Part shown: in pieces, positions 7,649 through 20,055 of the stretch
Layout of the letters: each line of letters starts with the position of its first letter
How positions within the stretch are numbered: the first letter of the stretch is position 1
Assembly (NCBI GenBank): GCA_900769815.1
Contig: CAAGID010000030.1
Coordinates: 2,993-66,992, forward strand
DNA length: 64,000 nt
Direction: 5' to 3'
Source of the DNA: Clostridia bacterium
GTDB lineage: Bacteria; Bacillota; Clostridia; Christensenellales; QALW01
Notes under the pieces: generated by a model
Told to the model about the DNA's origin: nothing
The model's input: only the letters and a program-made list of their open reading frames with translations
Databases searched by the model: none
Made by a program: the position numbers and the translations under genes

Positions 7649-9529
7649 TTATAACTGTGAGCTCTTATATTCTTCTAAAACTAAGTAATGATTTTCAGCA
7701 TCTTTTACAATATCTTCCCAACATATAAGTTTGTTATCATCCTTTATAATAATGTTATATTCCGTTTCCTTGCTAAAGCCTGAGGCTCTTACGCCACAAA
7801 TGTTCATATGTGCATTTATTGCTTCATATAAGGGTTTTGGACTTATTTTGTGCCCTATGCCTGAATTGGATATATGCACTACTGTTTTACCGCCGTTTAT
7901 TGTTCTAACCGCTGTGCCGGGACCTTCGGTACGAAGCCCGTCAAACAAAATATCAGAGCCGTCGTTTAATACTGCAAGGTCGGCCCTTTCAACGTTGACA
8001 CCACGACCAATAACCGTCTGATTATGAAATTCAAGAGGAATATTTTTGCAATAGATAGGTTGTAAATCTCCTCTTTGTAAGATTATGTTTTCGCAATAAG
8101 TACCCGTCGTCATAAAAACGTTATCAAGGTAAATTTTGCTTCCGCCAACGGTGTTAACATACATACATGCCATTGTTGTCTGTAAATCGCTTAAAACAAC
8201 ATCACGAACACAAGTTTGTTTCAAAAGATGCATATATCCGTAAAACTGTTCCTGTGTATAAAGATTTTCAACAAAAAGAATATCTTTAGAATCTTTATTT
8301 ATTTCAAAGGCACAGTCAATATCCCCTGAAATAATTTTTTCGCCTGCAGCCAGTTGGCAGAAGTTGAAATCAATATACTTTACCCTTTCAGGCACGAAAA
8401 CTTTATTTGTCATTAAATACAAACCTTCGCCAAATAAAACGATGGATTTACCGCTGTTAAAGGCTTTTTGTATCGCTTCTGTACAATCAGTAATACCGTC
8501 GCCCTTTGCACCAAAATCGTCTACAAAAGCATAGTTATCTTCTGTAAATTCAATATTATTTTGGGGAAATTCATATTTTGTTTTATCAGTATAAACGATA
8601 TTATTATTTAATTCGCCGTAAGTAACTGTATCATCAAAATAACATCTGCCCTTTTTCTCGCCATCGATGAATTCAACCGTTTTTAAATCGCCCGATATAA
8701 TATTTCGTGCAGTTAAAGGAGAATTTCCTGTTAATATACCAGCTTTTCTGTTTTGAGATACGTCGATATTATTCATAGTAACTAAGTTAGCATACTGTAT
8801 ATCAAAGCCGTAATCAAAGCCTGAAACAATAATATCAATAAGATTTACTTCTGAGCCGAAAACAGTATAAACACCTGCCGTACCGTTTTCGCCGATAATA
8901 TTTACGTTTTCCACTCTGCCTATATTTGAGGAAAGGTATTTTAAGCCTACACCGCCGTTATTGCCCATTAAAAGAGTAATATCCTCAAGCATATTCATCT
9001 GTCCCGTGTTTGTAACTTCTTCATTACGGGGTTTAGTGTTATTATTAAAGGATATTAAAGGTTTAAGGCTTCCTTTTGTAAAGCCCTCTGCATCATCTTT
9101 TAATTTTATAAACGTATTTTCCTTGCTTTCACCGAGAATATGAATATTACGGCTCAAGTCATACCTATCGCCATACTGATAATACTTATTTATTAAGTCT
9201 GTAAGAGTATATGTAACCGTATCACTTACAAGATAGGTGCCTTGAGGGAAATAAATTATTTTCGTAAAAGGCTCAAATTCAGGCATAGTAATATTTAGTA
9301 CGCCGTTTTCAACTCTTCCGCTCTCAAAGCCTACAAAAGTATCTTTCTTTAAATTATTGCTTAATAAAAGCATTTTTTCCTTAAATTTTTCCGTTGCTTC
9401 AATATGGCGGACAAGAACGTCATCAAGCACTTTTCTTAATACTTCCGTACAATCAATTTTGCCTGTATTATCTGCATTATAAGGCGATTTTGTTACGTCG
9501 ATTAATACTGAATTGTTTGGGTATTTCAT
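7649..9529 (-). CDS. pectate-lyase-superfamily / GH55-like double beta-helix protein
   Basis: ORF 7649-9562. The ATG at 9529 follows AAAGGAGAAG and overlaps the upstream stop (ATGA). Two copies of the N-cap motif (YNADNTGKIDCTEVLRKVL and FGAKGDGITDCTEAIQKAF) are typical of Pectate_lyase_3/GH55 folds. Confidence 0.65.
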   Translation of the reverse strand: MKYPNNSVLIDVTKSPYNADNTGKIDCTEVLRKVLDDVLVRHIEATEKFKEKMLLLSNNLKKDTFVGFESGRVENGVLNITMPEFEPFTKIIYFPQGTYLVSDTVTYTLTDLINKYYQYGDRYDLSRNIHILGESKENTFIKLKDDAEGFTKGSLKPLISFNNNTKPRNEEVTNTGQMNMLEDITLLMGNNGGVGLKYLSSNIGRVENVNIIGENGTAGVYTVFGSEVNLIDIIVSGFDYGFDIQYANLVTMNNIDVSQNRKAGILTGNSPLTARNIISGDLKTVEFIDGEKKGRCYFDDTVTYGELNNNIVYTDKTKYEFPQNNIEFTEDNYAFVDDFGAKGDGITDCTEAIQKAFNSGKSIVLFGEGLYLMTNKVFVPERVKYIDFNFCQLAAGEKIISGDIDCAFEINKDSKDILFVENLYTQEQFYGYMHLLKQTCVRDVVLSDLQTTMACMYVNTVGGSKIYLDNVFMTTGTYCENIILQRGDLQPIYCKNIPLEFHNQTVIGRGVNVERADLAVLNDGSDILFDGLRTEGPGTAVRTINGGKTVVHISNSGIGHKISPKPLYEAINAHMNICGVRASGFSKETEYNIIIKDDNKLICWEDIVKDAENHYLVLEEYKSSQL

Positions 9530-14205: not shown

Positions 14206-14260
14206 ATGATGACAATAGCAACGCTATCGTTGATGATATACCATTTCTTTCGCAATGGAT
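14206..14260. repeat. short copy of the ATGATAT-punctuated mini-hairpin pattern
   Basis: Plus strand: ATGATGA caatag CAACG-ctat-CGTTG ATGATATA CCATT-tctttcgc-AATGG AT. It directly abuts the tRNA-Leu terminator. Confidence 0.5.
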
Positions 14261-14287
14261 AAAAAAACCTCGCTCCGAAGAACGAGA
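14261..14287 (-). terminator. intrinsic terminator of tRNA-Leu
   Basis: Minus strand: CTCGTTC-TTCG-GAGCGAG (7 bp including one G.U pair, UUCG tetraloop), followed by GTTTTTTT. Confidence 0.75.
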
Positions 14288-14292
14288 TTTTC

Positions 14293-14381
14293 TGGTGCCG
14301 AAGACCGGGGTCGAACCGGTACGGGTATTACTACCCACGGGATTTTAAGTCCCGGGCGTCTGCCTATTCCGCCACTCCGGC
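14293..14381 (-). tRNA. tRNA-Leu (anticodon UAA), class II long variable arm, CCA encoded
   Basis: Minus strand: GCCGGAGTGGCGGAATAGGCAGACGCCCGGGACTTAAAATCCCGTGGGTAGTAATACCCGTACCGGTTCGACCCCGGTCTTCGGCACCA. Acceptor GCCGGAG/CTTCGGC, anticodon loop CTTAAAA, T-loop TTCGACC. Confidence 0.93.
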
Positions 14382-17387: not shown

Positions 17388-17441
17388 TATTTAAATACAG
17401 CCTGATGGCTAATGATATGCAAAAAGCACCCCGAATCAAAA

Positions 17442-17774
17442 TCATTCGTAAAACAAAGTAATTTTCGATTTGAAATACCGCTCTTGGAAATAGGTTAACT
17501 CTATGATTTCTCTTTTTGTAAAAGTAACGCCATCTGGTGCTACCACCCATTTGTGTTCGATGTCATCTTCACGGTTAATAATTGCAATAATTCTTCCGGT
17601 AAATTCAGAAACAGGTTCGGTTACGCCTAAAATATATGCATCCTCTTCTTCATCATCTGCCGCTATTGTTCCTTTAATATAACCATAATTTATGGGGTAG
17701 TATAAATTAGGATGTTCCGGATGAAAACTGCCAAGAGGCCTGTCAACTGTTACTGTAACAATTGGACCAATCAT
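17442..17774 (-). CDS. miniature inorganic-pyrophosphatase-like protein
   Basis: 110 aa. YPINYGYIKGT...DDEEEDAYILGV...IIAIINREDDIEHKWVVAP parallels the family I PPase core (YPxNYGxIPxT...DGDPxDxLV...D.K.i.V), but the N-terminal third is missing. Confidence 0.6.
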   Translation of the reverse strand: MIGPIVTVTVDRPLGSFHPEHPNLYYPINYGYIKGTIAADDEEEDAYILGVTEPVSEFTGRIIAIINREDDIEHKWVVAPDGVTFTKREIIELTYFQERYFKSKITLFYE

Positions 17775-18124
17775 TCCGTGCTCCCCTTTGCGGTTTTGCA
17801 GGAGGCAATTAAAAGTCTACGGATATTACCACAGAGTTTTTCAGTATGCCGATATGTGGCAATATCAATTCTTTTTGTTTCATACATCAGTTTTAACCAA
17901 TAACTTGTTTCATTTGATTCCTTCAAAGCAATTTCAAGTTTTGAAACAAAATCCTTTTTCCCCTGTGCATACTGTGCTTCGTGAATATTTGCACCAACCG
18001 ATGTGCTTGCTCTTGCAAGTTGATCGGTCATATAAGAACTTTTGGGTGCAGTTACGCCGTCAACAAGATTCAAAATAGCAACTGCAAACTCAAAAGATAA
18101 GTCTAGTAATTTATTATCAGACAT
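17771..18124 (-). CDS. four-helix-bundle protein (23S rRNA intervening-sequence protein / Avd family)
   Basis: The track ORF 17771-18340 is over-extended. The ATG at 18124 follows AAAGAAGGTG and lies downstream of the promoter at 18147-18175. MSDNKLLDLSFEFAVAILNLV...QLARASTSVGANIHEAQYAQGKKDFVSKLEIALKESNETSYWL is the family signature. The stop overlaps the next ATG (ATGA at 17771-17774). Confidence 0.8.
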   Translation of the reverse strand: MSDNKLLDLSFEFAVAILNLVDGVTAPKSSYMTDQLARASTSVGANIHEAQYAQGKKDFVSKLEIALKESNETSYWLKLMYETKRIDIATYRHTEKLCGNIRRLLIASCKTAKGSTE

Positions 18125-18146
18125 AAAAGCACCTTCTTTTAATATG

Positions 18147-18175
18147 ATTATATCATAAATTATTTCATTCTTCAA
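18147..18175 (-). promoter_or_regulatory. sigma-A-type promoter for the four-helix-bundle/mini-PPase pair
   Basis: Minus strand: TTGAAG (18170-18175), 17-nt spacer, TATAAT (18147-18152). The -10 sits in the palindrome ATGATATAATCAT. Confidence 0.55.
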
Positions 18176-18342
18176 TGATATATCGCTATCGCGATATGAT
18201 ATACGGCGTTGCCGTATGATATATTTGCGATGCAAATATGATATAATATCCGTCCCTTCATACGCGAAGCGTATATCATCTGCAAAGCAGATATCATACC
18301 CGCAGGGTATATCATCCGTTCCGATAGAAACGGATATCATTG
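18173..18342. repeat. branched palindrome: 7 mini-hairpins flanked by 4 ATGATAT and 4 ATATCAT punctuation motifs
   Basis: Perfect stems at 18180-18197, 18201-18217, 18221-18239, 18260-18274, 18278-18292, 18296-18310 and 18314-18335. The linkers are GAT in the left half and ATC in the right half. See findings. Confidence 0.8.
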
Positions 18343-18381
18343 AAAAAAGTTACTTTTGTCAGTAACAAAAGTAACTTTTTT
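18343..18381. terminator. intrinsic terminator of the tRNA operon (bidirectional geometry)
   Basis: AAAAAAGTTACTTTTGT-cagta-ACAAAAGTAACTTTTTT, a 17-bp perfect stem, starting 3 nt after the tRNA-Val CCA end. Confidence 0.85.
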
Positions 18382-18383
18382 CT

Positions 18384-18459
18384 TGGTGGGAACAATAGGG
18401 CTCGAACCTATGACCCTCTGCTTGTAAGGCAGATGCTCTCCCAGCTGAGCTATGCTCCC
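18384..18459 (-). tRNA. tRNA-Val (anticodon UAC)
   Basis: Minus strand: GGGAGCATAGCTCAGCTGGGAGAGCATCTGCCTTACAAGCAGAGGGTCATAGGTTCGAGCCCTATTGTTCCCACCA. Anticodon loop CTTACAA. Confidence 0.93.
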
Positions 18460-19852: not shown

Positions 19853-19879
19853 TAAAAAAACTCCCTCGACAGAGGGAGT
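19853..19879 (-). terminator. intrinsic terminator of the DUF5050-DUF5050-DUF1934 operon
   Basis: Minus strand: ACTCCCTC-tgtc-GAGGGAGT (8-bp perfect stem) followed by TTTTTTT. Confidence 0.8.
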
Positions 19880-19888
19880 ATATAAAGA

Positions 19889-20019
19889 ATGCACAACGTA
19901 CATACCTCAACATTTTTTGCAAGGCGAAAATATATCGCTTTTGCACAGCAAAAATATCGCACGACGAAGGCGTATATCACACATTCACAAAGGAATGTAT
20001 ATCGTTACACCGAAGGTGT
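19889..20019. repeat. tandem array of six variable mini-hairpins, the last four ATATC(G/A)(C/T)-punctuated
   Basis: Plus strand: ATGCAC-aac-GTACAT; TTTTGC-aag-GC(g)GAAAA t ATATCGC; TTTTGC-aca-GCAAAA ATATCGC; ACGAC-gaa-GGCGT ATATCAC; ACATTC-acaaag-GAATGT ATATCGT; ACACC-gaa-GGTGT. Confidence 0.75.
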
Positions 20020-20055
20020 TTTAACACGCAATTTCAAGGATTTTTTGTGCTCTTC

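Follow-up and report, generated by a model that had tools for sequence, protein, structure and literature searches.

An inverted pair of Gut-1 hairpin arrays at the head of a putative tRNA-linked gene cassette in gut Clostridia

Gut-1 was reported by Weinberg et al. in 2010 (PMC2864571) as a probable non-coding RNA, at that time seen in human gut metagenomes only, without further comment, and is described there as a free-standing small RNA (sRNA) candidate of 77 nt. A further point of reference is the protein family PF05635, which is similar to Avd, a protein that serves diversity-generating retroelements as accessory factor (PMC10053308). Literature searches (for Gut-1, for PF05635 in combination with tRNA, and for cassettes) returned nothing later on the function of Gut-1 and no account of the element reported here. 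We studied an array of small hairpins at positions 18173-18342 of a 64,000-nt stretch of DNA from a Clostridia bacterium (contig CAAGID010000030.1), in the following called the window. The observation is real and non-random: the array is a member of a known, unexplained motif family and consists of two Gut-1 copies facing each other, i.e., an inverted pair. Comparison with related loci makes it well supported that this pair and the terminator preceding it form the conserved non-coding head of a tRNA-linked cassette. All coordinates use the numbering of the whole window and refer to the plus strand unless stated otherwise.

The array and its match to Gut-1

The Rfam model of Gut-1 (RF01706) matches positions 18268-18342 on the minus strand with 52.8 bits (E 6.6e-10), i.e., above the family threshold of 50. 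The inverted copy at 18173-18249 on the plus strand scores 48.7 bits, which is just below this threshold. The family consensus reads CAaUGAAAU-hairpin-GUGAAAU-hairpin-GUGAAAU-hairpin-UGAAAU, and the window copy has UGAUAU linkers instead. In the model alignment, we find the three hairpins with UGAAAU-like single-stranded linkers that characterize Gut-1; the covariation is seen across the 56 aligned loci described below. Among the related loci introduced below, all above-threshold matches cover the distal half on the sense strand. Furthermore, the flanks of the Gut-1 seeds from Weinberg et al. (PMC2864571) show a terminator in front and an inverted second half after the centre GCGAAUAUAAUAUCAC; one of these flanks carries a tRNA 3' end. 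That is, architecture and context are given here more fully than in any description we found; the motif itself was already catalogued. The parts of the array are as follows (hairpin stems in plus-strand coordinates).

18268-18342, minus strand: distal half-array (Gut-1) with UGAUAU linkers on the sense strand; hairpins 18314-18335, 18296-18310, 18278-18292 and 18260-18274
18240-18259, no strand assigned: centre, reading GAAGGGACGGATATTATATC on the minus strand, i.e., the 3' arm of hairpin 1 once more, together with a degenerate inverted linker
18239-18247, plus strand: TGATATAAT, contained in the centre
18330-18340 with 18242-18252, minus strand: predicted helix P1, in which linker 1 and the 5' arm of hairpin 1 pair with the centre
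18173-18249, plus strand: proximal half-array, the inverted copy, with gene-sense linkers reading AUAUCA; hairpins 18180-18197, 18201-18217 and 18221-18239

A preliminary description of the array, made from the letters of the window alone, had given the same sequence for 18173-18342, which our re-reading confirmed. All seven perfect 6-8-bp AT-clamped mini-hairpins that it claimed are present. Its four plus four inverted boxes are borne out as well, i.e., ATGATAT occurs on the plus strand at 18175, 18196, 18216 and 18238 and on the minus strand at 18273, 18291, 18309 and 18334; a ninth copy (18150, minus strand) lies inside the -10 of the promoter. An inverted-repeat listing recovered every nested linker complementarity reported there. 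The description was thus right about the anatomy (AT-clamped hairpins, constant linkers, variable stems, inverted halves) and about the placement between the terminator of a tRNA operon and the promoter of a four-helix-bundle gene, but overlooked both the Rfam family and the repeated cassette linked to tRNA 3' ends.

It had also excluded several known element types, and we agree. The seven hairpins are no terminators, as a T run is absent from all of them and only 18342-18382 qualifies as an intrinsic terminator. CRISPR arrays need direct repeats of at least 23 nt, whereas the repeated unit is 7 nt long here, occurs in two orientations and is separated by palindromes. An iteron-like array, one of the roles it had suggested, does not fit: iterons are identical direct repeats of 17-22 bp beside a rep gene, while only 7 nt are kept per unit here and there is no rep gene.

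We compared motif counts and folding with shuffled sequence. ATGATAT occurs 28 times in the window compared to 12.9 +/- 3.6 times after shuffling (28 is attained in 0/100 shuffles), and nine of the 28 copies fall inside 190 bp. As RNA, the minus strand of the array folds with z = -6.55; as DNA, the plus strand reaches z = -5.89, and in both cases 0/200 shuffles are as stable. Motif and folding are thus both far beyond what shuffled sequence provides.

These shuffle statistics refute the idea of a chance feature of AT-rich intergenic DNA. Equally refuted is an N-terminal coding extension of the PF05635 gene, for which one could cite that the frame is open through the array and used by public gene calls. 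These report an open reading frame (ORF) of 189 aa through the array (17771-18340, minus strand) and thereby produce spurious, length-variable N-terminal extensions of PF05635 proteins of up to ~88 aa. The exact look-up of the 117-aa protein remained without match because public calls use the read-through ORF. The Shine-Dalgarno sequence and the ATG at 18124 are conserved, and the extension varies from 0 to ~88 aa among near-identical proteins. What conservation tracks is base pairing and not codons, so the array was rightly called non-coding. Given, in addition, that the array is conserved in more than 150 loci, we consider chance and coding together to be of practically negligible probability.

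A recurrent module behind tRNA genes

Using homologues of the PF05635 protein, we fetched 80 loci from species-level genomes; individual loci are cited by number (L127 etc.). There are 5825 homologues at E < 1e-10, and the best 120 are all 83-93% identical. Uncultured gut bacteria are the source of all 80 loci, and the label is Clostridia or Oscillospirales in nearly every case (Acutalibacteraceae, Faecousia, Oscillospiraceae, Ruminococcus). At the DNA level, homology to the window sets in at the CCA of the tRNA and ends at the PF05635 stop codon, i.e., the module has sharp edges. Its common layout is CCA / A-run-stem-loop-stem-T-run / CAATGATAT / hairpin 1 / three variable hairpins with TGATAT linkers / centre GGAACGGATATTAT / three variable hairpins with ATATCA linkers / TTGAAA-17-TGATATAAT / AGAAGGTG-ATG. 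This array layout recurs in 56 aligned loci, across which the centre is almost invariant. Hairpin 1 (CCGTTCC..GGAACGG) is conserved in sequence, unlike the variable hairpins. The proximal array is located at -120..-52 relative to the PF05635 start in at least 60/80 loci. In the window, the array is surrounded by the following elements.

18384-18459, minus strand: tRNA-Val(tac) (ARAGORN), last gene of a six-tRNA operon, with its CCA end as left junction of the putative cassette
18342-18382, minus strand: terminator, a perfect 18-bp hairpin between A6 and T6 and first element of the module
18147-18175, minus strand: promoter-like site of sigma-70 type, TTGAAG-17-(TG)nTATAAT, with TG upstream of the -10 and a -35 that abuts the last linker
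17771-18124, minus strand: PF05635/TIGR02436 four-helix-bundle (Avd-like) gene, 117 aa, with Shine-Dalgarno sequence AGAAGGTG at 18130-18137
17442-17774, minus strand: cargo gene, 110 aa, weakly pyrophosphatase-like, whose ATG overlaps the PF05635 TGA (ATGA)
17418-17462, minus strand: possible degenerate right-end repeat (weak resemblance, uncertain)

The four-helix-bundle protein is recognized by Pfam PF05635 (3e-23), TIGR02436 (3e-26) and PDB entry 2RLD (4e-24). In 55/62 evaluable loci, the array is preceded by a same-strand tRNA or tmRNA gene whose end lies a median of 44 nt away, and 25 different tRNA/tmRNA genes are occupied across these 62. In four further loci (L148, L181, L203, L204), a tRNA 3' fragment rather than a whole gene precedes the module, ~40-50 nt ahead of the terminator, which hints at rearrangements or additional insertions by which the tRNA was split. 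The terminator hairpin is conserved or covarying in other loci. Its core TTTGTC-TACC-GACAAA was considered as crossover site and dismissed as not general, since several modules have unrelated terminators.

The promoter TTGAAA-17-TGATATAAT, which is close to consensus, is kept in related loci; its spacer and the downstream sequence vary. The preliminary description had suggested that the linker punctuation mimics an extended -10, which could make the linkers a decoy for RNA polymerase. This is ruled out: the -10 is unchanged when the linker type changes, i.e., GAAAT-type modules keep it as TGTTATAAT or TGATATAAT, and the central TGATATAAT is not kept in the other linker subfamilies. The same observation bears on a putative antisense sRNA gene, for which the central TGATATAAT (18239-18247, plus strand) would fire towards the tRNA, transcribing the complement of the distal half and ending at a bidirectional terminator. 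Such a gene would make use of a perfect extended -10 on the antisense strand, invariant in TGATAT-type arrays, and of the A6 and T6 runs of the terminator. We nevertheless regard it as very unlikely, as this -10 is not kept in the other subfamilies, there is no -35, a wobble pair in P1 would turn into an A.C mismatch on that strand, and A-runs are common at array-free tRNA terminators too.

Downstream of the array, the last codons of the PF05635 gene (..GCAAAGGAGAAnnnAAATGA) hold a Shine-Dalgarno sequence together with an ATG overlapping the stop codon, and in ~45/60 loci an unrelated gene begins at exactly this ATG. The cargo is small and diverse: GNAT acetyltransferases, S-adenosylmethionine (SAM) methyltransferases, a nucleotidyltransferase, MatE, NUDIX and MazG, as well as histidine and low-molecular-weight phosphatases, ASCH, a CAAX-protease-like protein and a WapI-like immunity protein. 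After the cargo, ~30/59 related loci show a right-end motif of two direct repeats, TACTTTTRGKCnTTCTTACC .. TACTACTTTTRGTCnnTCTTTCGCA (short form TACTTTTRGKC..TCTTTCGCA), which is followed by a terminator and often by a further array of another linker type. A pattern search for this motif in the window gave no convincing copy. A different repeat with several GCACCCCC boxes, ending in ..GGTTAGTYTTCA, abuts the array or the terminator in L135 (3730-3868) and L172 (3640-3740) and may be the end of another cassette type.

We also compared occupied sites with each other and with empty ones. L127 and L139, which belong to different species, are 99% identical over 1354 bp, located behind tRNA-Tyr and tRNA-His, respectively. 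L213 and L214 share the flanks of the window (M19 peptidase 67-73% identical), but their tRNA-Val site is empty, i.e., it reads tRNA-Val-CCA, plain terminator and convergent GNAT gene, without array, PF05635 gene, cargo and the two genes that follow. Other relatives carry different content at this site. In L218 (5421-6974), the orthologous tRNA-Val site is taken by a tyrosine integrase and a Rep_OBD/RepB gene, i.e., by a different, classical integrative element. Cassettes can be chained, and tandem array pairs occur: in L189 (3641-3981) and L199 (3560-3960), the whole array pair is tandemly duplicated between tRNA and PF05635 gene. Rearrangement breakpoints and insertions map to the centre (L133, L135, L153, L171, L193). 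The cassette of ~1 kb is thus apparently insertion-like and repeatedly relocated, where mobility rests on this comparative evidence. The earlier suggestion that the array represents the two abutted ends of an empty mini-element fails because both halves sit together at one end of the cassette.

Sampling was also done from the array side, i.e., by scanning metagenomes with the 18-nt centre. This identified at least 120 loci, with 104 real array pairs among the matches listed, to which the following counts likewise refer. A hairpin with T-run is found directly upstream in 80/91 array pairs and a tRNA or tmRNA gene in 56/86, again of 25 kinds. PF05635 is located downstream in 52/115, and the remaining arrays drive other genes directly or nothing. 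Therefore, the terminator is the constant partner of the array, while tRNA linkage and PF05635 are frequent but not obligatory; arrays persist at loci without PF05635 or promoter. Among 2.9 million viral contigs, only four matches to the 18-nt centre were found. A looser viral scan (three TGATAT boxes) gave almost only chance matches and one real, unidirectional array in phage L109 (IMGVR_UViG_3300018494_004896, 8620-8790; the same in L206 and L209). It comprises six hairpins in one direction with GATGATATGCA linkers, followed by an intrinsic terminator. Its neighbours are the replication module on one side and a gene resembling a terminase small subunit on the other, which is the place at which a pac/cos region is expected; no PF05635 gene is nearby.

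Further arrays were observed within the window. A second hairpin array at 19920-20030 (minus strand) is unidirectional and more degenerate with (T)GATAT linkers, and is located in the 3' untranslated region (UTR) of a DUF1934 gene, just before the terminator 19857-19880 and the promoter of the M19 dipeptidase. This array and the long spacer are absent from the relatives L214, L215 and L218. The DUF1934-M19 spacer also contains the motif CACAAAAAATCCTTGNAANTGCGTGTT, which is found once in the window (20010-20045) and twice in L213 (4205-4400) and forms a small repeat family. Behind tRNA-Leu(taa) (14293-14381), positions 14225-14292 (minus strand) hold a terminator, a small hairpin, gtATATCATCA and a second palindrome, which looks like a remnant or minimal form of a proximal array. 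Near-identical stubs of hairpin and ATATCATCA are found behind terminators in L215 (after tRNA-Val) and L193.

Pairing, strand preference and possible roles

Stem compensation was assessed in the alignment of the 56 sequences. In the seven local hairpins, 95.5% of the stem cells are paired, compared to 24-52% in controls with slid stems. We count 19 pairs with two-sided change compared to 8.7 +/- 1.6 after shuffling (0/500 shuffles as high). Covariation thus demonstrates both parts of the earlier statement that the structure is conserved and the stem sequence is not.

Strand preference was evaluated by counting wobble pairs (GT) versus A.C mismatches on unique stems. The terminator shows a bias for the sense strand (GT 25 / AC 6), and the proximal half favours the minus, i.e., gene-sense, strand with GT 43 / AC 7 overall and 23 / 1 for inner pairs. 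This is also reflected in the RNA consensus energy, which is better for the sense strand (-69.3 vs -58.7). These counts thus favour the gene-sense strand in the terminator and in the proximal half. UUCG tetraloops as an RNA signature are ruled out, since the respective loops are triloops with a closing C-G pair, reading TTC on one strand and GAA on the opposite one.

For the same alignment, RNAalifold predicts a 14-bp long-range closing helix (P1), in which linker 1 and the 5' arm of hairpin 1 pair with the centre. The helix is invariant within the linker subfamily of the window. In other subfamilies, the arm varies (CCACCC, AAATCCC, TTTGCC, GTTCCGC; TTCGCC in the Weinberg seeds) and the centre changes in step, i.e., complementarity is maintained with at least six different arm sequences. 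P1 is in competition with both hairpin 1 and the outermost helix of the stacked-junction rod that the preliminary description had envisaged. The rod itself is the minimum-energy fold of the window copy and draws on a second kind of complementarity: distal and proximal linkers are reverse complements in five subfamilies (TGATAT/ATATCA, GAAAT/ATTTC, ATGATG/CATCAT, GTGAAG/CTTCAC, ATGAAG/CTTCAT). However, the comparison supports the competing helix as well. The linker numbers of the two halves are near-independent; 4+4 linkers are found in ~97/129 arrays, and deviations of the two halves are uncorrelated (r = 0.23), which speaks neither for nor against a zipper fold. The kept linker complementarity would fit either linker-linker pairing within a single strand or one protein that reads both halves in duplex DNA.

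Based on these comparisons, we tentatively favour that the array is a strand-specific, self-folding cis site that marks the head of the cassette for mobilization. The gene-sense strand, once single-stranded, would fold such that every variable palindrome forms its own small hairpin. Exposure could take place as the template of lagging-strand synthesis, provided that tRNA genes and replication run in the same direction (which we assume), or as RNA reading through the terminator. The hairpins would then act as spacers that keep the invariant 7-nt linkers in register, and the linkers would either be exposed or zip up with the complementary linkers of the other half; the closing helix to the centre would be an alternative. 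The result would be a repeated, strand-specific platform for a linker-specific factor acting in trans, for which the PF05635 protein is one candidate. Support comes from the Gut-1 matches on both halves, the sharp edges, the varied tRNAs, the empty sites, the chaining and the breakpoints in the centre. It also comes from the covariation, the sense-strand wobble bias, the complementarity of linkers and closing helix, the cassette-like cargo, and arrays that persist without PF05635 or promoter.

Several observations weigh against such a mobilization site. Within 4 kb of the 80 loci, neither a recombinase nor a transposase nor a reverse transcriptase is recurrent, and no target-site duplication or circular junction was seen. 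Of the two hallmarks of MITE or transposon ends, i.e., terminal inverted repeats and a target-site duplication, inverted termini TTCAATGATAT...ATATCATTGAA are present, and no direct duplication is recognized between filled and empty sites. At its right end, the cassette carries another motif, which is not palindromic. Since one cassette in L134 combines terminator, promoter, gene and right end without any array, arrays may be unnecessary for the cassette structure. The inner stems of the distal half are without strand bias (GT 7 / AC 6). Finally, the unidirectional arrays of L109 and 19920-20030, located in 3' UTRs before a terminator, point to a role as RNA, and the linker spacing of ~21 bp as well as the contact to the -35 would equally suit a binding array in double-stranded DNA.

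The first of these two alternatives is a structured RNA as in the Rfam/Weinberg class, i.e., an array of hairpins and UGAUAU linkers that acts at the RNA level, which we hold to be possible, if doubtful. The RNA would stem from transcription that runs past the terminator behind the very active tRNA genes or, in the case of unidirectional copies, from the 3' UTR. It might serve as a platform with multiple sites for a protein (e.g., PF05635/Avd-like), as an exonuclease barrier, or as a processing site that parts tRNA read-through from the cassette mRNA. The stem covariation, the consensus energy and the sense-strand G.U bias in the proximal half, terminator and helix P1 agree with this, and the two unidirectional arrays should be transcribed, given that they precede terminators. 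A link to RNA is also suggested by the resemblance of PF05635 to Avd and by the PF05635 ORFs carried in rRNA-gene insertions. Avd binds nucleic acid. However, a strong terminator separates tRNA promoter and array in the 80/91 pairs mentioned above, and the cassette promoter is downstream of the array; therefore, no promoter is seen for a sense RNA. Some array pairs are even flanked by terminators on both sides (L154), and the two halves bear different linkers on one strand (UGAUAU, AUAUCA).

The second alternative is an operator or architectural array in duplex DNA. Here, a linker-specific protein would bind all of the 4+4 inverted boxes from the same side of the helix, beside the -35, either repressing or insulating the cassette promoter, or recruiting gyrase or nucleoid proteins behind highly transcribed stable-RNA genes as proposed for BIMEs (bacterial interspersed mosaic elements). 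The mean linker spacing corresponds to two helical turns, the -35 is directly adjacent to the last linker in each subfamily, the boxes form an inverted arrangement with symmetry about the centre, the canonical 4+4 arrangement dominates with the ~97/129 arrays given above, and the arrays are located just downstream of tRNA/tmRNA genes. Yet this leaves unexplained why near-perfect palindromic spacers are kept by compensatory change and why wobbles are strand-biased, and arrays exist without downstream promoter or gene. We thus rate it as unlikely.

Extending the folded cis site to the whole family, Gut-1 arrays might be the strand-specific sites of an undescribed cassette system in gut Clostridia. 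Such a system would combine integron-like cargo and chaining with an anchor point that is either the CCA 3' end of tRNA/tmRNA genes or a mimic of it at the right end, would be self-insulated by its own terminator and promoter, and would typically be led by an Avd-like PF05635 gene. It would form one class with PF05635-bearing rRNA-gene insertions and be moved in trans by an enzyme, which might be a reverse transcriptase that partners with the Avd-like protein. As a whole, we consider this extension rather improbable.

Significance and comparison with known systems

These results give Gut-1, an orphan in Rfam since 2010, a host clade, namely Oscillospirales living in the guts of humans and animals. 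Its anatomy is fixed and comprises a terminator, an inverted pair of arrays with its closing helix, and a promoter. As a genomic rule, its place is immediately behind tRNA/tmRNA genes, and its frequent partner is a PF05635/Avd-like gene with translationally coupled variable cargo. If the cassette reading is true, small accessory genes, among them those of acetyltransferases, nucleotidyltransferases, efflux and immunity proteins, would be moved around and expressed by a widespread route in abundant gut bacteria. It would also hint at a role of the PF05635 family outside diversity-generating retroelements.

When compared to known systems, the T-shaped hairpins of single-stranded DNA replicons (inverted terminal repeats of parvoviruses) and single-strand origins share with the array that a 14-bp stem can close the distal half round three internal palindromes. 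The likeness is one of shape: the array is chromosomal and internal, and no Rep/HUH gene or evidence of a nick site was found.

Repetitive extragenic palindromic (REP) sequences and BIMEs of Enterobacteria and Pseudomonas, which are associated with RAYT transposases, are likewise multi-copy extragenic palindromes in alternating orientation with short linker motifs. They are located at 3' ends of transcription units beside terminators, which resembles the terminator preceding the array in 80/91 pairs among the matches listed and the inverted halves, and roles both in DNA (gyrase, integration host factor) and in RNA (3' end protection) have been proposed for them. In contrast to REP, where the palindromes are conserved and the linkers variable, the 7-nt linkers are invariant here, while the stems differ by unit and locus. 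Furthermore, no RAYT (Y1/HUH) or IS200-like family recurs within the 4-kb flanks of the 80 loci, and linkage to tRNA ends and PF05635 cassettes is not a feature of REP.

Intervening sequences (IVS) of rRNA genes with a PF05635 ORF (23S IVS; rRNA insertions of the candidate phyla radiation, CPR) have in common with the module a PF05635 gene on a small insertion at a stable-RNA gene, beside inverted repeats. IVS are located inside the rRNA and removed from the transcript, whereas the module follows the tRNA CCA behind a terminator and has its own promoter and cargo.

Integrons and their attC sites share a small, diverse, often single-gene cargo of similar types as well as the chaining of cassettes, and the candidate site shows, as attC does, conservation of structure and short boxes rather than sequence, together with a strand bias. 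Here, however, no IntI-type recombinase is recurrent in the 4-kb flanks (the single integrase, in L218, belongs to another element), and the anchor is the 3' end of a tRNA/tmRNA gene and not attI. The array is located at the 5' head of the cassette instead of its 3' end, which consists of two direct repeats and not of one imperfect palindrome as in attC. Integron cassettes are promoterless, whereas each cassette has its own terminator and promoter here. The proposed folded cis site would follow a logic similar to that of folded attC sites and REP/BIME units, but belongs to neither group.

The closest relative is Gut-1 itself, with which the array shares three to four short hairpins separated by UGAAAU/UGAUAU linkers. 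In contrast to its published description, Gut-1 is here joined by an inverted second half, can form a closing helix to the centre and sits inside the terminator-array-promoter module of a putative tRNA-linked cassette, and arrays of the window type also occur in gut genomes of ruminants and other animals and not in human gut metagenomes only.

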